From assembly GCF_032062105.1 (NCBI RefSeq), contig NW_026919438.1, positions 1 through 64,000 on the forward strand: 64,000 nucleotides of DNA. Reading direction: 5' to 3'. The translations under genes and the position numbers were made by a program. The notes below the pieces were generated by a model that saw only the letters and a list, made by a program, of their open reading frames with translations, was not told the origin of the DNA and did no database searches. The DNA comes from Saccostrea cucullata (Eukaryota). Below, piece after piece: positions 11,600 through 46,282 of the stretch. Within the stretch, counting starts at the first letter, position 1, and each line of letters begins with the position of its first letter.

Positions 11600-13047
11600 A
11601 TGGAACAAACTACGTATTCACCTAGAGATATGGAATTGACCGGAGACGCGAGTGATAGTCCTATAGCTGAAACACCAAGAAGTGCGAGGAATATTCCGAG
11701 AAGGGAATATGGTTCATCAGCAAGACGAAATTTAATGGTGAATTTTAATGAGGCGGAGAACGTTAATTCGCCTATTCATGCAAGTACTCCTGCATGTTCA
11801 GAGCCGGACCAACAGACCGATTTTAATCAGGAATCCAGTGAAAGCGAAACTTCACAATGGAAAAACTTCATGTGTTTATGGGGTTTGGTATTTCTGGCAG
11901 GAACTGTAGGTTTATACCTTTTGTATAAATATTTCCCAGGATATATGCTGCTATGCCTAACACGGGAATTTCTGATGACAGGAACACTGGCAATCTTGTG
12001 CGTTATACTTATTAGTATTATTTGCAAGCTGGCATTTAGAGATGATCTTGTAAGTGGGCGCAACAGAAACACAGAAAGGAATTTAACATCAAGGACCCCT
12101 ATACCACGACGAACTCCAAGTCTCTCGCCAGGCGTTAACCAGAATGTAATGTCAGGTGTTCAACCCTCCCTATCTAGGGTTCCCAATACAAGGAATACAC
12201 CAGCGCAACAGATAAATGTGAAAAGAACATTTAAGGGAGATGGCACAGATATTTGGAGTGAATACATACGATATTTTGAAAATATTTCAGAACTAAATGG
12301 CTGGGATAATGACAGAAAACGAAAAGTATTTTTCACAGTGTTGCGGGGACAGGCAGAAACATTCTGTTACGGATTATCCGATTCCGAGCGGAGCGACTGG
12401 AAACTGTTAACAGAGTCAATGAACCGGAGATTTGGTCACATGGCTATGAAAGAGAGCTACATTACGGAAGCAAAGTTGCGATTTAAGAAGCATGGCGAGA
12501 CTTTCCGAGATTTTGGACAAGCTATCCAAGATTTATACAGACGAGCTTATCCGGAAAGCAGGGAATATGTACAGGAAGCTAGTCTCAAGACTTTCCTTGA
12601 CAACTGTAGTGAATCAGGAGTTTTGTTTAGCTGTTAAGAGAACACGACCAAAGACTATTGATGAAGCAGTTACAGCAGCAATGCAGGAAGAGTGCATTAG
12701 ACTCACAGAGAACCGGAAACCTAGAGATCAAAGGATCATGAAACCCCCAGTTTACCAGGTATGGTCAAATTCTACTAAAACCGGAAATTAAGACGGATAT
12801 GCTAGAGCCACAGGATACAGTCCAGAGACGGTACTATAACAACAATAATAGTGTGACGACAGGTACGAATTATCAAGCGAGGGACAAGAAATTGTGCTAT
12901 CATTGTAACTCAAGTCAACACTTAATCCGAGATTGTCCAAAGAAAGCAACTTCAAAGAAAATGCAAAACACAGGTGCGACTTTCCAAAAGAGGAAGAATC
13001 AGGAAACACCCGAGCAGCAGTTAAACGACATTCGACCGAGGCAGTAG
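11600..13047 (+). pseudogene. gag: Gag with N-terminal hydrophobic (TM-like) pair, capsid-like domain and CCHC knuckle; two frameshifts (~12620, ~12790)
   Basis: FKGDGTDIWSEYIRYFENISELNGW...LRGQA capsid-like region; RPKTIDEAVTAA in the second frame; CYHCNSSQHLIRDC knuckle in the third frame. Confidence 0.85.
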
Positions 13048-16000
13048 GCCGTGTGTCGGTCACAATGCACCACAGGCCTAATACATTGGATTTGCAACAT
13101 TCCGTTTCAGAGAACAGGGAGACTAGAAATGAAGCTAAATTGCTTGAGAAGCTTTCTGTGGTAAACTCCGAGGAAGGAGAATCTCCAGTTTTTAATAAGG
13201 AAGCGGGTGTAAATGATGCAACGCACATCGGTGTAAACTCCAAGCAGGGCGAGGACCGGAAATTTAAGGTTAAAGGATCCTGTGACATGAGGATCAATGG
13301 ATGGGTAGAAGGGACTCCCCTTGAATGGAAAATCGATACAGGTGCGGTTAATACCTTTATTACGGAAGATACATTTTACAATATCTTACCGGAAATTAGA
13401 CCTGTGCTGGAACGCGTGCAGAAGAAATTTCACATAGCTGATGGAAATGAATTACAGATTCTAGGGACTGCAAAGATGATTTTAAGTTTTGGAGAAAAAG
13501 ACGTTTTATTTCGTGTTTTTGTCGGAGGAGTTAAGTGCAATCTCCTGGGACAGGATTTCATGAGACAATTTAAGTGCAACTGGGATTACAGTGAAAATTC
13601 GTTGATGTTAAATTTTGATTCGTACAATCAAGGAGGAGATTTCAGTCATAGAACTTTGCGGGTTTTGTCCATAGAGGATTGTGTTATACCCGGGCGACAT
13701 GAAGCTTTGATTAAAACTAGGATACGATGCACGGAAAATCTTGGTGATGGAATCTTATTGCCGATTAAGCAGTTCATGCATGTTTATGGATTAATGATTG
13801 CGCATGCTCTTGTAAACGCTGACTTAAAGGAAGTGTTTGTGCGTGTATTTAATCAGTGTGATAACGATATTTTGGTGAAAAAGGACACAGATGTAGCACT
13901 GTTTTCACCTGTGAAATATATTAGTGAACATATTCATGAACAAGGAGTATTTGATGTAGATTTTAAAAGGAAATCTGAGGATTTGCCGGAACATCTAAAG
14001 AAGTTGTATTCAGAGGGATGTGAACATTTAACAGAGGAAGAAAGTATTACTTTCAAGGAATTTTTAATGGAATTCAAAGGAGCATTTGCTGACCCGAACC
14101 AACCAATGGAGCGTGCTAATTTTGGAGAGCATTGCATTAAATTGAAAAATGAATCGCCGTTTAAGGAACCACCCAGGCGAGTCCCTATATTTAAAAGGGA
14201 AATACTGGACACGGAAGTTCGGAATTTTGAGAAGCATGGACTTATAGAGGAGTCTATTAGCCCTTGGTCATCACCCCTTGTACTGGTGCAGAAAAAGGAC
14301 AAAAGCTGGAGAGTGTGCGTAGACTATAGGAAACTCAACGCTCAAACAATTAAGGATGCTTATCCCATTCCAAGGATTGCCGATAATTTAGATTCATTGG
14401 CGGGATCTAAATGGTTTACTTCATTGGATTTAAACATGGTATACCATCAGATTCCAATGTCGGAGAGTGACAAGGAAAAGACTGCTTTTGCAACACCACG
14501 TGGAGGATTGTACCAGTACCGAGTTATGCCTTTTGGACTATGTAACGCGCCTGCAACTTTTCAGCGTGTTATTGAGAGAGCATTACAAGGACTACAGTGG
14601 CATATAACAGTACTTTACTTGGACGATATAATTGTGACTGGTCGAGATTTCTCAGGTCATCTGAAAAACTTACGACAAGTGCTCGATCGACTACGGCAAG
14701 CAAACTTGAAGCTTAAAGCGAAAAAGTGCAAATTCTTTCAAAAGGAAGTGATATTCCTCGGACATATTGTGTCAGAAAACGGTGTTAAAACTGATCCGGC
14801 GAAAACTAGAGCTGTCGAGGAATGGAAATCACCAGAGAATGTATCTGAATTAAGGAGTTTCTTAGGACTTGTGTCATATTACAGGAAATTCATCAAAAAC
14901 TTTGCCGAAATAGCAAAATGTTTACATGCACTTACAAGTAAAAATTCTAAATGGGAATGGATGAATGAATGTGAAAATGCATTTCAAATGCTGAAATCAA
15001 AACTAGTGACTGCTCCCATACTAGGATATCCAGATACGGATGGAGGTGTATTTATTCTAGACACTGATGCTAGCAACAACGCAATTGGAGCTGTTCTGTC
15101 ACAAATTCAAGACGACAAGGAAATAGTTATTGAGTACGCTAGCCGAACTTTGAATAGTGCAGAGAGAAATTACTGCGTTACTCGGAAAGAAATGCTAGCG
15201 CTTGTGTATTTTATAAAGCATTTCAAACATTATTTGCTCGGGCGGGAGTTCATTCTTAGAACTGACCACGGATCATTAGTGTGGCTGCACAAATTTCGGG
15301 AGCCAGATGGACAAGTAGCGAGATGGCTTCAACAACTGGGACCATACGTATTTCGCATTGTGCATAGACCAGGTAAACGCCATGGAAATGCTGACGCATT
15401 ATCCAGAATCAGTGACAGTTTAATCTGTAAACAATGCAAGCGCTACATTCACGAAGAATCGACAGAAGAAACTTTCACTCATGTAGACGAATTAAGAAAA
15501 CTATGTGAATCCCCGGATTGCTACAAACAGAACACAGAAGTTTTAGATATCGGATGTTTGTTATATCCCGGAAGTTATCCGAATCCGGATGCGTGTCAAG
15601 TAGAATCAACAAATGAAAACAGTAAAACGGCTAGGCGTAAGAAAGTCAAAAACAGACCCCCTCCAGCGAGGCAACGGAAACAACCAACAGAGTCTCTGAC
15701 AGTTGAAAATATACGTAAGCGCCAACACGAAGATCATGAGATGTCTGAACTACTGCGCTTAAAGGAAAAATTGGATTCTGTGAAACCTGCGATAAGTTCT
15801 ATTTCTCATACCAGTTTTGAGTTCAAATTCTGGTATTCTAGGTGGGAAATGTTAACAGTTGATCGTGGTTTACTATGTTACCGGTGGATAGAAAAAGACA
15901 GTGAAACACTTAAAATATGTATTCCCAGGACTTTACGTGACAGTGTAATGTGGTATTTACATGATTCAAAAACTGCCGGACATATGGGAATTAGGAGGAC

Positions 16001-17261
16001 TGTTTCAAAGTTAATGAATAGTCAGTACTACTGGCCACAGCTGAAGCTATATGCTCAAGATTATGTATCGTCATGCGATATTTGCGAAGAGAGGAAAAAT
16101 CCAACAAGGAAGAAGCGATCTTACATGAAGACGTATTTAAGTGGTGACAGGTTCCATAGAATAGCCGCGGATATTGCAGGACCATTTCAGAAATCAGAAA
16201 ATGGATACTTGTACATATTAGTCGTCGCTGATTATTCTACTAAATTTTGTGAAATTTATCCCTTACGTGATATGGAAGCTGAAACTGTGGCAGAAACATT
16301 ATTCAAAGGTTGGATTAAACGATACGGATGTCCGTTAGAAATACACTCTGATCAAGGTAGACAGTTTGAAAGTCAACTATTTCAAGAAATGTGCAGATTA
16401 CTTCAGATCAACAAAACACGGACAACTGCTTACCATCCGCAGTCCGACGGGATGGTAGAGCGATTAAACCGAACTATAAAGGAAATGTTATCGAAATACA
16501 TTTCAGCTCATCAGACAGACTGGGACAAGTACATAGACGGGATCGTTCTGGCCTATAATAGTACACCCCATGAAACAACGACTATATCTCCGTATAGAAT
16601 GGTGTTCGGTACAGAGCCCTCACTACCCTTAGATGTTATGACTACAGAATTAACCGAAGAAGAACCAGTTCGGAAAAATGATTCGGAATATGTGAGAAAC
16701 TTGGAAAGTGAACTATATTTTGTGCACAATCTTGCGAGAGAAGTTACAGGAAAATTATCGCAAAGACAAAAACATTATTATGACAGAAATGTTTGTAATG
16801 TGAATTATGACATTGGAGATAAAGTGAGGCGAAATCAACGCCAAATTATTACAGGGACGAAAGCAAAACTAGCAAGGAACTGGACAGGGCCATGGTTTAT
16901 TGTGAAAAGACTGAGCGATACGCTTTATCAAATTCAACATTCCAAAAACTCCAAGCCTGTGATAGTGCACGCCGACAATATCAAACCATACAGGGGGAAT
17001 AAACAATTGCGCCCAGTTCCTGAATCCGAATATACAACTGGCGAGACAGCAGGTGCCCCGCGACGTCGCGTGCCAGCTGCGAGAGAGAGACCAATGACCA
17101 AACGATTGAAGTTACCGCCAGAGCCGCGACCCGAGACTGTCACAGCGGAACAGTCACATGCCGACAGCCAATCAGAAGCCGTCATTAGAACAACACGACT
17201 TGGGAGAGTTATAAAAAGACCACTTCGGTACCAGACTGACCATTCTCCAGATGATTTGTGA
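12933..17261 (+). CDS. pol: Pol polyprotein: aspartic protease, dUTPase-like insert, RT, RNase H, integrase
   Basis: IDTGA (protease); CVDYRKLN, MPFGLCNAPATFQR, YLDD (RT); TDAS, TDH, NADALSR (RNase H); HHCC, ADIAGP, SDQG, VERLNRT (integrase); open for 1442 codons. Confidence 0.97.
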   Translation: MSKESNFKENAKHRCDFPKEEESGNTRAAVKRHSTEAVGRVSVTMHHRPNTLDLQHSVSENRETRNEAKLLEKLSVVNSEEGESPVFNKEAGVNDATHIGVNSKQGEDRKFKVKGSCDMRINGWVEGTPLEWKIDTGAVNTFITEDTFYNILPEIRPVLERVQKKFHIADGNELQILGTAKMILSFGEKDVLFRVFVGGVKCNLLGQDFMRQFKCNWDYSENSLMLNFDSYNQGGDFSHRTLRVLSIEDCVIPGRHEALIKTRIRCTENLGDGILLPIKQFMHVYGLMIAHALVNADLKEVFVRVFNQCDNDILVKKDTDVALFSPVKYISEHIHEQGVFDVDFKRKSEDLPEHLKKLYSEGCEHLTEEESITFKEFLMEFKGAFADPNQPMERANFGEHCIKLKNESPFKEPPRRVPIFKREILDTEVRNFEKHGLIEESISPWSSPLVLVQKKDKSWRVCVDYRKLNAQTIKDAYPIPRIADNLDSLAGSKWFTSLDLNMVYHQIPMSESDKEKTAFATPRGGLYQYRVMPFGLCNAPATFQRVIERALQGLQWHITVLYLDDIIVTGRDFSGHLKNLRQVLDRLRQANLKLKAKKCKFFQKEVIFLGHIVSENGVKTDPAKTRAVEEWKSPENVSELRSFLGLVSYYRKFIKNFAEIAKCLHALTSKNSKWEWMNECENAFQMLKSKLVTAPILGYPDTDGGVFILDTDASNNAIGAVLSQIQDDKEIVIEYASRTLNSAERNYCVTRKEMLALVYFIKHFKHYLLGREFILRTDHGSLVWLHKFREPDGQVARWLQQLGPYVFRIVHRPGKRHGNADALSRISDSLICKQCKRYIHEESTEETFTHVDELRKLCESPDCYKQNTEVLDIGCLLYPGSYPNPDACQVESTNENSKTARRKKVKNRPPPARQRKQPTESLTVENIRKRQHEDHEMSELLRLKEKLDSVKPAISSISHTSFEFKFWYSRWEMLTVDRGLLCYRWIEKDSETLKICIPRTLRDSVMWYLHDSKTAGHMGIRRTVSKLMNSQYYWPQLKLYAQDYVSSCDICEERKNPTRKKRSYMKTYLSGDRFHRIAADIAGPFQKSENGYLYILVVADYSTKFCEIYPLRDMEAETVAETLFKGWIKRYGCPLEIHSDQGRQFESQLFQEMCRLLQINKTRTTAYHPQSDGMVERLNRTIKEMLSKYISAHQTDWDKYIDGIVLAYNSTPHETTTISPYRMVFGTEPSLPLDVMTTELTEEEPVRKNDSEYVRNLESELYFVHNLAREVTGKLSQRQKHYYDRNVCNVNYDIGDKVRRNQRQIITGTKAKLARNWTGPWFIVKRLSDTLYQIQHSKNSKPVIVHADNIKPYRGNKQLRPVPESEYTTGETAGAPRRRVPAARERPMTKRLKLPPEPRPETVTAEQSHADSQSEAVIRTTRLGRVIKRPLRYQTDHSPDDL
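13020..13061 (+). promoter_or_regulatory. Candidate -1 ribosomal frameshift signal (gag-pol)
   Basis: G_TTA_AAC in the gag frame at 13020-13026, 7-nt spacer, stem GACCGA (13034-39)/TCGGTC (13056-61); pol is -1 relative to the gag C-terminal frame. Confidence 0.6.
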
Positions 17262-18030
17262 ATATTGTGGGTGTGTGTTTTCGACAAATAGTCACTTGTA
17301 CCAGCATCAACGCGAACAACATAGAAGTGATTTGAATGTTATTAAATGTGAATATTGCCAAAAACTCTTTACTAGAAAATCAAATCTTAAAAGACATGTT
17401 AAAAACGTCCATAAGTTAGACGAGGACTTCATCAATGAGGCCTTAAATCCCCCGCGGAAGAAGATTCAACGACACAGCTTCATGGAGACCCGGAAACCGG
17501 TGTACGTTATGAGTGACTTTTATGAGGACATTTCCTCCGATGAGGAAGAGATGCATTATGCTGAGACTGCGCAGCCACTCGTTAGGGATTCATATCCGGA
17601 CTTAGACATCATTTCAGTGAATTCGGAAGACTTGCCGGAAGTAGATGACGCTTTTGTTAGTGAAATTCTGGGCGACATAGAAGAGGAAGAAACGTGTGCG
17701 CGACCAACAGAAGAATCTCTCGAGTCACCAGACGTGAGCGAAGCCGCGAACTCGTCATCAGAGGACAGTGATATGTATGACATGGACGATAACAACAATC
17801 GCGTAAGTGTCGAGACGTCAACCATATGCCTGGTGATGAAGAAGACGATTCGGACTAATCCTGACGGCACCGAGGAGATTAATCGCGAATCTCAAATTAT
17901 CTACTCAGAGAACGTAAATCCAGAGGAAGTAGACTTTCGTGATCTTGCCGAGGAGATTCTGGATGAGGTTCCGCGACACCTAGCGCCGAGTGCCCGTGTG
18001 CGGATAGTAAAGGGAGATTTGTCCTTGTGA
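17251..18030 (+). CDS. Gypsy ORF3: two C2H2 zinc fingers, basic NLS-like patch and long acidic region (259 aa)
   Basis: CEYC-x12-H-x4-H twice, PRKK, then a D/E/S-rich tract; lies between pol and the PPT, overlapping the end of pol; homologue at 44782. Confidence 0.85.
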   Translation: MICEYCGCVFSTNSHLYQHQREQHRSDLNVIKCEYCQKLFTRKSNLKRHVKNVHKLDEDFINEALNPPRKKIQRHSFMETRKPVYVMSDFYEDISSDEEEMHYAETAQPLVRDSYPDLDIISVNSEDLPEVDDAFVSEILGDIEEEETCARPTEESLESPDVSEAANSSSEDSDMYDMDDNNNRVSVETSTICLVMKKTIRTNPDGTEEINRESQIIYSENVNPEEVDFRDLAEEILDEVPRHLAPSARVRIVKGDLSL

Positions 18031-18443: not shown

Positions 18444-18456
18444 AAGTGGGGGGGAG
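18444..18456 (+). promoter_or_regulatory. Polypurine tract
   Basis: AAGTGGGGGGGAG immediately before the 3' LTR; same motif at ~45981-45993. Confidence 0.9.
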
Positions 18457-18457
18457 T

Positions 18458-18736
18458 TGTAGCGAATTATTATGTAACTATGATTTGTTTATATAACATT
18501 GCTCCTCGCGAGCAATGGGTTTTTGATTACATTGCATTGCTCCTCGCGAGCAATGGGTTTTATGTATAAATATAGGAGCGATTTTAGACAGTTAGTCAGT
18601 CAGTTTTTCATATTCATTACGATCACTTCGGACAATTTTTATTTGGATTTTTATACTTACTGTGTTTATGTTATCGTGGATTTTAAAATGTGAATAAACC
18701 GTAAACTTGATTACTTGCGTATCATTTCAAGAATAT
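18458..18736 (+). repeat. 3' LTR, missing the last 64 bp
   Basis: Matches 9520-9798 with 4 substitutions. Confidence 0.95.
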
Positions 18737-44156: not shown

Positions 44157-46282
44157 TGTAGCGAATTATTACGTAACAATGATTTGTTTATATAACATTG
44201 CTCCTCGCGAGCAATGGGTGTTTTGTTTACATTGCATTGCTCCTCGCGAACAATGGGTTTTATGTATAAATATGTGAGGAAAGTGAACTATATTTTGTGC
44301 ACAATCTTGCGAGAGAAGTTACAGGAAAATTTTCGCTAAGACAAAAACATTATTATGACAGAAATGTTCGTAATGTGAATTAAGACATTGGAGATAAAGT
44401 GAGGCGAAAGCAACGCCAAATTATTACAGAGACGAAAGCAAAACTAGCAAGAAACTGGACAGGGCCATGGTTTATTGTGTTAAGACTGAGCAGTCGCAAC
44501 CCGTCATAGTGCACGCCGACAACATCAAACCCTAGCGCGGAGATCAACAGCAGCCCCACTACACAACCAGCGAGACAGCGGAATACACGGGTGGCGAGAC
44601 ACCAGATGGTCAACAACTGCACTCGTCTGGACCAGGCCGGCGGCGTTTCAAGTTACCGCTAGCTCCACCCCCGAGAACAGACAATTCGGAAGCTGACCAA
44701 TCAGAACCAATAATGAAGATGACCCGAAGAGGACGGACTATAAGAAGCCCCATCCGTTTCAGAAATTAAAACATTCGACAAATGTTGTGCGAGACTTGCG
44801 GAAAGACATTCAGCACAAGCAGTAATCTTCGCCAGCATACCAGAGAGAAACGTAGTGATCATGTAAATAGTTTACTGTGTAGTTATTGCCAGAGACCCTT
44901 TTTGCGAAAATTTAATTTGAAAAGACACTTGACTTCAGTTCACAAACTGAATAGTAAACATTTAGAAGCAGCCATGTCCTCAAAGCGGAGACGAGTCGAG
45001 CGTGATGTCTTCTTTGAAACCAGGAAACCGGTGTACGTTATGAGTGACTTTTATGAGGACATTATCTCCGATGAGGAAGAGATGCATTATGCTGAGACTG
45101 CGCAGCAACTCGTTAGGGATTCATATCTGGACTTAGACATCATCTAAGTGAATTCGTAAGACTTGCCGAAAGTAGATGACACTTTTGTTAGTGAAATTCT
45201 CGGCGACATAGAAGAGGAAGAAACGTGTGTGCGACCAACAAAAGAATCTCTCGAGTCACCAGACGTGAGCGAAGCCGCGAATTCGTCATCAGAGGACGGT
45301 ATTATGCATAATATGGACGATAACAACAATTGCATAAGTGTCGATAACCATATGCCTGGTGATGAGGAAGACGATTCGGACTAATCCTGACGGTTCCGAG
45401 GAATCGCGAATCTAAAATTATCAACTCAGAGAACGTGAACCCAGAGGAGTAGAATTTCTTGATCTTGCCGATGAGATTCTGAATGAGGTTCCGCGACACC
45501 TAGCGCTGAATGCCCGCGTGTGGGTAGTAAAGGGAGATTTGTCCTTGTGAACAATGTATATTCGTGAAACAAATTTGAGGCCATACTGAAAAAGTTGTGA
45601 ACTCTAACAAAAGACTTGTGGTCTATTAACAAGCTTTTATGTATATAATATTTAATTATTTTGACTTTGATTTTTATTATGTTTTAATGTCATGTTTGTA
45701 AATATTTTTTTTTTTGTGTGCTTTATTTGTCCGAAGGTGATTTATTGTTTACGTAGACTAGGTTTGCTAGGTGTAAGTTAACATGTTCACTGTTTCAACA
45801 AAATAATTTTATTATGGATTGTGTAGTAAAAATTAACTGATTTAGAAAGAAATAATTGTTTATATATAGCTAACGTTTAATTGTTTATGTATTTCCTTTA
45901 AATTTTACCATCATGTTTAACTTCAAAAAAATAATTTTAGTTGTATATTGTTTAATCATTTTGAACGGAGTTTAAAACTTAAGTGGGGGGGAGTTGTAGC
46001 GAATTACAAAGTAACAATGATTTGTTTATATAACATTGCTTCTCGCGAGCAATGGGTTTTATGTATAAATATAGGAGCCATTTTAGAAAGTCAGTCAGTC
46101 AGTTTTTGATATTCATTACGATCACTTCGGACAATTTTTATTTGGATTTGTTATATACTTACTGTGTTTATGTTATTGTGGATTTTAAAATGTGAATAAA
46201 CTGTAAACTTGATTACTTGCGTATCACTTCAAGAATATTCATTGGGAGAAAAGGAAAACACTGAGAGTTATTCCCCTTAGAC
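44157..46282 (+). mobile_element. Internally deleted derivative of the same Gypsy family (partial 5' LTR, integrase tail, ORF3, PPT, 3' LTR)
   Basis: LTR start at 44157 joins pol position ~16687 at AATAT (~44269-44273); ORF3 homologue; 3' UTR closely matches 18030-18457; 3' LTR 45995-46282. Confidence 0.93.
44782..45549 (+). pseudogene. ORF3 homologue (C2H2 x2 plus acidic region), with stops and frameshifts
   Basis: MLCETCGKTF...CSYCQRPFLRKFNLKRHLTSVH; from ETRKPVY onward near-identical to 17484-18030; stop at 45145-45147. Confidence 0.85.

Follow-up and report, generated by a model that had tools for sequence, protein, structure and literature searches.

An open reading frame that lies behind pol, in the env position of a retroelement, raises the question of what its product does for the element that encodes it. 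The frame, ORF3, was found in Saccostrea cucullata DNA, in a stretch of 64,000 nucleotides that we call the window, and the element around it is an env-less Ty3/Gypsy LTR retrotransposon with LTRs of the form TG...CA, a primer-binding site (PBS), a polypurine tract (PPT) and a pol gene in which Pfam finds the order PR-RT-RNase H-IN. Our reading, to which we give a probability of about 0.7, is that ORF3 is a Ty3/Gypsy accessory gene for a self-encoded transcription factor that binds the element's own LTR and likely activates it. The features of the element, in window coordinates, are the following.

9520..9863, + strand: 5' LTR, TG...CA, 344 bp (full length taken from the intact family copies L082-L086), 98.6% identical to the 3' LTR over 279 bp
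9559..9579, no strand: LTR palindrome 1, predicted ORF3 site; half-site GAG-CAA, inner triplets 5 bp apart
9597..9617, no strand: LTR palindrome 2, predicted ORF3 site; final half-site ends 11 nt before TATA
9627..9632, + strand: LTR TATA box, from sequence
9868..11048, no strand: satellite-bearing insertion of 1.18 kb between LTR and PBS, missing from other family copies
11058..11077, + strand: PBS, from sequence and family copies, which we take to be of tRNA-Leu type
11204..11545, + strand: ORF0, CxxC..CxxC, zinc-ribbon-like, before gag; no start codon in this copy
11555..13047, + strand: gag, with CCHC knuckle and N-terminal hydrophobic segment(s); divided among three frames in this copy
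12909..17261, + strand: pol, PR-RT-RNase H-IN (Pfam), one open frame of 1450 aa
17166..17217, + strand: pol-tail candidate for an internal promoter; CCAAT box at 17168, TATAAAAA at 17210
17251..18030, + strand: ORF3, 259 aa; ATG 17251, TGA 18030
17257..17412, + strand: two C2H2 fingers (Pfam, alignment, structure prediction)
17494..17550, + strand: KPVYV..YEDISSDE motif, conserved; all 17 aligned rows have Y91 and I94
17806..18027, + strand: C-terminal domain, aa 186-259; predicted beta-hairpin plus helix, candidate dimerisation module
18444..18457, + strand: PPT, from sequence
18458..18736, + strand: 3' LTR, truncated to 279 of 344 bp; both palindromes, 18497-18517 and 18535-18555

Because the 3' LTR is truncated, no target-site duplication can be read in this copy; an AT-rich spacer separates ORF3 from the PPT. 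An inverted relative of the satellite-bearing repeat between LTR and PBS lies nearby at 5648-6905. ORF0 is 74-81 aa long and 40-59% conserved across families (L053, L058, L070, L072, L084 and L088), with weak Pfam matches only. The N-terminal hydrophobic segments of Gag (11555-12637, and likewise in six other families) have 19-residue hydropathy values of 2.2-2.95 and are absent from L064. The Gag of this env-less element is possibly membrane-anchored, for which passages on the transmembrane sORF2 of MDG1 elements offer a comparison (10.1101/2025.03.14.642691).

ORF3 overlaps the end of pol (stop at 17259-17261) by 11 nt. The sequence-only reading had described two C2H2 fingers with the helices TNSHLYQH and RKSNLKRH, a basic PRKK and no signal peptide or transmembrane segment, hence no Env, and these points stand. 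Pfam gives zf-C2H2 at 41.7 bits (cut-off 25.2) in two stretches, the fingers being at aa 3-24 and 33-54; both helices are in the sequence, as is PRKK at aa 68-71 (a basic patch that some families lack). Seven of the eight finger ligands are invariant across 17 aligned rows, and the structure prediction that had been proposed as a check returned confident fingers, with AlphaFold2 pLDDT of 86-92 per block over aa 1-60. The highest 19-residue hydropathy in ORF3 is 0.32, so the protein is without a signal peptide or transmembrane segment and is not Env; together with the lack of any Env family among its Pfam matches, this rules out the Env identity. The linker between the fingers has eight residues and is non-canonical, the canonical C2H2 inter-finger linker being TGEKP. 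The best fold match of the fingers is the Tramtrack finger pair (PDB 2drp; rmsd 1.2 over 55 columns, 36% identity, E of 0.012, above the 0.001 significance level), which likewise consists of two H-x4-H fingers; unlike ORF3, Tramtrack is a host protein, and the likeness is confined to the fingers.

At least 13 divergent families, counted as those with both readable fingers and an LTR, carry ORF3 after pol, and their RT is 48-80% identical to that of this copy. Upstream of the TATA box there are two palindromes with 5-bp spacing in nine families and direct repeats in four, and the distance from the last half-site to TATA in the palindromic families, counted by eye, is 11 nt in eight of the nine and 12 nt in the ninth. 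The top repeated LTR words were reached in 0 of 500 shuffles for this LTR and five other families and in 23/500 in three; against 500 shuffles they were not significant in L072 and L064. The GAG-CAA half-site of this element is found in the LTRs and once more at 15234.

The recognition code of C2H2 fingers is given by helix positions -1, 3 and 6, and passages of a published account present such codes as context-dependent (PMC4330361). The second finger of ORF3 has R-1, N3 and R6. It is predicted to read GAG, as we take R/N/R to be read by the usual code, and GAG is the inner triplet in most families. By the strong rules of the code 173 of 180 specified positions match (10 families), with an exact permutation value of 1/40,320 (8 families); adding the weaker rules, which often fail, gives 178 of 236 positions and 5/40,320. 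These permutation values overstate independence because the families are related; moreover, the strong code was fixed post hoc after several families had been seen, and the LTR sites and their register were chosen by the analyst, those of L072 by a search in which G-N-G was obligatory. For this copy the Asn form of finger 1 entered the test, and for L186 the Asn of its family mates. A model with a one-base gap between the half-site triplets was dropped because L053, L058, L070 and L072 do not fit it. Outside this genome, two metagenome scans yielded no locus for the code test.

The families in which the helices differ are informative about both fingers. In L072 the Ser3 of finger 2 pairs with G-N-G and the R/N/R of finger 1 with GAG, and in L186, with Glu6 in finger 2 and R/N/R in finger 1, the LTR half-site is CAG-GAG, which was derived ahead of the site reading and recorded only after it; Glu6 in finger 2 goes with CAG also in L194 and L195. 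Asn at position 3 of finger 1 goes with a middle A, and families lacking it (L058, L070) have G or T there. Finger 1 fits poorly: its Gln6 never stands with A (five families), Arg6 stands with C in three of four L053 half-sites, and Arg-1 with A in three of four L088 half-sites. The present copy is itself a poor fit, having His at position 3 of finger 1 (His in 3, Asn in 8 and Lys in 2 of 13 readable copies), yet its LTR keeps the A.

Some half-sites were predicted ahead from the helices. The one for L234 was found in all seven LTRs located (13 loci), and the 5-bp palindrome predicted with it was absent. The predicted half-site was also found in L264 and in L266/L268, each with three GAGGAG before TATA, and once in the older L265; three of the predicted families share this purine-rich GAGGAG. 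The LTR of L064 has three copies of TGGAGC (0 of 1000 shuffles), a word that fits its N-N-G-G-A-N and was picked after looking. No LTR was found for the L275 half-site prediction, and L233, L219 and L142 are too degraded, L219 keeping one TAGGAG/TAGGAT pair 4 bp apart. This co-variation of helices with repeated LTR sites supports the earlier proposal that the element encodes a regulator of its own LTR. We regard binding of ORF3 to its LTR as highly probable and activation, once binding is granted, as probable; that the effect is activation, rather than repression or anti-silencing, is what we infer.

The earlier description was of an acidic tail of about 170 aa and an activator-like modular layout. 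In ORF3 the fingers (aa 3-54) are followed by the KPVYV..YEDISSDE motif, then by an acidic linker that varies between families and by a C-terminal domain of 74 aa; mean identities among nine families are 46% for the fingers, 22% for the linker and 39% for the C-terminal domain. The acidic peptides quoted earlier are present, and aa 83-185 are acidic (32% D+E); the last 74 aa (20% D+E) do not belong to an acidic activation tail and form a conserved, predicted folded domain. Its model has pLDDT 80 and pTM 0.53, with a beta-hairpin and then a helix. It has no Pfam family, its best VIA Z is 2.5 among 48,161 chains, no viral fold was found at E 0.001, and an Atlas search with its homologue P0006 gave no usable match; this lack of matches does not establish a new fold.

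We propose that the candidate internal CCAAT/TATA promoter in the pol tail would make ORF3, which would bind the repeated U3 sites of its own LTR with finger 2 on the inner triplet of a half-site and finger 1 on its outer triplet. Each palindrome would take up two molecules, perhaps paired via their C-terminal domains, and the acidic region and YEDISSDE would bring in host machinery at the TATA box, a helical turn away; activation of the LTR would then give genomic RNA. ORF3 would be diffusible, and intact copies would therefore drive defective copies of the same family too.

The YEDISSDE motif allows a different outcome at the same sites, in which ORF3 represses or limits the element or alters its chromatin, the motif docking on a SPOC protein (SPEN/RBM15). 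It shows the Y-E-x-L/I-pS-D/S-x-E register of SPOC-binding LSD-motif proteins (SMRT/NCoR), and passages on the SMRT/NCoR ligand YETLpSDSE name the Tyr and the +3 acidic residue as contacts (PMC9834408). The motif is the best-conserved part of the linker, arises in 0.1-0.6% of shuffles and recurs in 25 of the 36 homologues described below; SPOC proteins are encoded in this genome, and SPEN is described in part of PMC10111866 as alternating between corepressor and coactivator. The resemblance to the SPOC ligand was judged by eye, and a predicted complex of ORF3 aa 75-112 with the SPOC domain of the host RBM15-like protein scored 0.44 versus 0.53 for the control. Presumably the motif would also suit a SUMO-interacting or a TFIIH-binding reading. 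Several sites at a fixed TATA spacing and an acidic-hydrophobic linker, both seen here, are typical activator traits, and we consider a repressive or chromatin role unlikely.

The pol tail reads RRCCAATCARA in 7 of 12 families, with synonymous letters identical, and CCAAT is absent in 5 of 12; TATAAA stands at 42-72 nt in three of the seven CCAAT families, and most families have a TATA-like word. L070 has a GC box and TATAAA in the pol tail instead, and L072 and L238 have none of these elements. We take the CCAAT element to be an NF-Y box, and a CCAAT/TATA-like internal promoter in the pol tail is our candidate source of ORF3. Stop-start coupling is an alternative because, in the 10 families with the pol stop placed in an intact tail, no more than about 35 nt separate it from the ATG. 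A spliced env-type mRNA from a CAG before the ATG was rejected: the AG is unconserved across families, and neither reads nor contigs contain a joint. Element RNA is present at trace level in oligo-dT data (63 reads among 12.8 million records, 45 among 11.3 million and 48 among 10.9 million, in both directions), and these reads show no ORF3 excess, no splice joint and no pile of starts. One run, presumably of RNA, gave a contig of 7,831 nt that covers gag, pol and ORF3 without a splice joint; X4, X5 and X12 have contigs ending close to the start of ORF3, and these ends are uninformative on the transcript start and were excluded from the counts.

ORF3 could act on RNA rather than DNA, as a Rev/CERV-like export factor for unspliced genomic RNA that recognises the palindromes as RNA hairpins of the 3' U3. 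The CERV protein of Cer1 is described as a nuclear export accessory protein of an LTR retrotransposon (in part of PMC10309623). The SPOC domain of RBM15 is used in viral mRNA export, and the U3 folds better than shuffles (z = -2.8). Against this, direct repeats make such hairpins impossible in four families, the sites obey a double-stranded DNA code and keep a fixed TATA distance, and spliced ORF3 RNA is absent from the contigs and the very low-depth reads, which leaves export an improbable function.

Very improbable in our judgement is that a host factor binds the LTR repeats while ORF3 targets host genes or integration sites, the code match reflecting shared ancestry and chance. GAG with an R/N/R finger 2 in most families is one inherited state, finger 1 misses often, and elements that lack ORF3 can also have a single 5-bp palindrome in their LTRs; these points are countered by the concordant switches in L186 and L072, which lie on separate branches, and by the four held-out half-sites that were found as predicted.

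ORF3 occurs at no fewer than 22 sites in this genome by DNA search and at least 131 by protein search, following pol or the pol tail wherever pol is present in the fetched loci. A quick RT tree places 12 of the 13 families in a 14-row clade (SH-aLRT 100%) and the thirteenth, L064, on a long distant branch, so that module transfer or several losses are possible. Pooled over seven within-family pairs, pN/pS is 0.22, indicating purifying selection, with 0.42 in the fingers, 0.18 in aa 57-98, 0.28 in the linker and 0.15 in the C-terminal domain; dN/dS is near 1 in the two youngest pairs, as is expected of post-insertion mutations. Between families the synonymous sites are saturated, and ORF3 protein identity is still 31-49%. 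A profile search with the C-terminal domain returned 96 representatives at E up to 0.001, at least five of whose long matches are unrelated proteins. Among 36 homologues examined (190-460 aa), a C2H2 finger is present in 20 and the Y-x-x-I-S motif in 25. Of 20 homologues that were looked up, known from protein sequence alone, those with a named source come from Crassostrea virginica, three Mytilus species, Pinctada and Pecten. Judged by these sequences, relatives of ORF3 appear to extend across pteriomorph bivalves (oysters, pearl oyster, mussels, scallop); RefSeq labels several ORF3 copies Cp190-like or EVI1-like.

The sequence-only reading had named as its counter-case a host exon of recent capture. 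Such a zinc-finger exon, functionless in the element, might draw on those RefSeq names and on the two youngest pairs, but it is already refuted by the purifying selection and the wide spread over many families and several bivalves, ORF3 being intronless and conserved in position across the 14-row RT clade. A broader picture, for which we would give slightly less than even odds, is of a bivalve-wide clade of 'complex' LTR elements with their own C2H2 factors, in which dozens of co-evolved finger/LTR pairs would form private orthogonal circuits, driven by internal promoters within pol and coupled to host SPOC proteins through a mimic of the NCoR motif.

Among known systems, ORF3 resembles Tas/Bel1 of foamy viruses (Spumaretrovirinae) in being element-encoded, in the location of its gene 3' of the structural genes and in its acidic region. 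Tas is described in part of PMC517496 as a nuclear protein that binds LTR DNA elements directly, has an acidic activation domain and uses an internal promoter, to which the candidate promoter in the pol tail would be a parallel. Unlike Tas, ORF3 has C2H2 fingers, the word 'zinc' being absent from PMC517496, and it belongs to an env-less Ty3/Gypsy element. A further difference is that no ORF3 half-site lies near the candidate internal promoter, so no positive feedback is indicated there, and no Tas family is among the Pfam matches of ORF3. VANDAL elements are DNA transposons. Their VANC protein in Arabidopsis is a TE-encoded, sequence-specific anti-silencing factor, and related families differ both in the protein and in its repeated targets (PMC5735166). 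ORF3 is likewise TE-encoded and diverges together with repeated targets, but its sites are grouped at the promoter and can be read by a zinc-finger code, whereas VANC brings about DNA demethylation across the element. The nearest retrotransposon precedent is CERV of C. elegans Cer1, a nuclear, phosphorylation-dependent accessory regulator (part of PMC10309623) that is translated from a spliced mRNA and acts in RNA export; for ORF3, in contrast, no splice joint was seen and the signal points to DNA. ORF3 would be Tas-like in its working and VANC-like in its target co-evolution; by the tests made it is a member of neither family.

Self-encoded DNA-binding transactivators are a hallmark of complex retroviruses. 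Our literature search found no report of one in a Ty3/Gypsy element, though this ORF may have a Repbase entry already; PMC6238403, a survey of mollusc LTR elements, contains neither 'zinc' nor 'ORF', and PMC13524379 neither 'zinc finger' nor 'ORF3'. For each family the sequence gives both the protein and its likely target, and the claim is therefore directly testable. If it is true, it shows how many related elements in one genome avoid or share cross-activation, it provides a natural collection of finger/site pairs, and many bivalve genes now annotated as 'Cp190-like' or 'C2H2 domain' would be transposon genes. The 151 exact palindrome copies of this family group (5 for a control pattern) could bring nearby host genes under ORF3 control.

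Several derivative and related elements were noted. A broken 2.1-kb derivative in the window (44157-46282) joins L076-type fingers to the acidic and C-terminal part of this family, and its sequence reads as inter-family recombination inside ORF3. Young copies with internal deletions (L060-L063, L066, L067; LTR identity as high as 100%) have retained gag and ORF3, and two of them, L066 and L067, have a portion of pol joined in frame to the finger-less remainder of ORF3. Distant Gypsy families have different zinc-finger ORFs after pol (L292:6975-7658, L295:2190-2873, L299:7143-7796 and L298), three of which share a TQT motif, in our view resembling dynein-light-chain LC8 sites, before a C-terminal hairpin-like stretch. 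Profile comparison of the ORF3 C-terminal domain with the C-termini of L292, L295 and L299 found no likeness (probability 0.2%). In these distant families the zinc-finger ORF lies on a 766-815-bp cassette that sister subfamilies lack (L289 vs L292, L291 vs L299, L294 vs L295) and whose ends are not GT-AG; the cassette-borne ORF is dispensable in cis. The LTR of L271 (6994-7587) has about ten (A/G)GCCTA repeats before TATA, the fingers of that family not having been recovered, and finger 2 is different in its sister L275. In the Gypsy families L293 (7130-8227) and L300 (7175-8212) the ORF after pol encodes a BTB/POZ domain (BTB_2, E about 1e-13).
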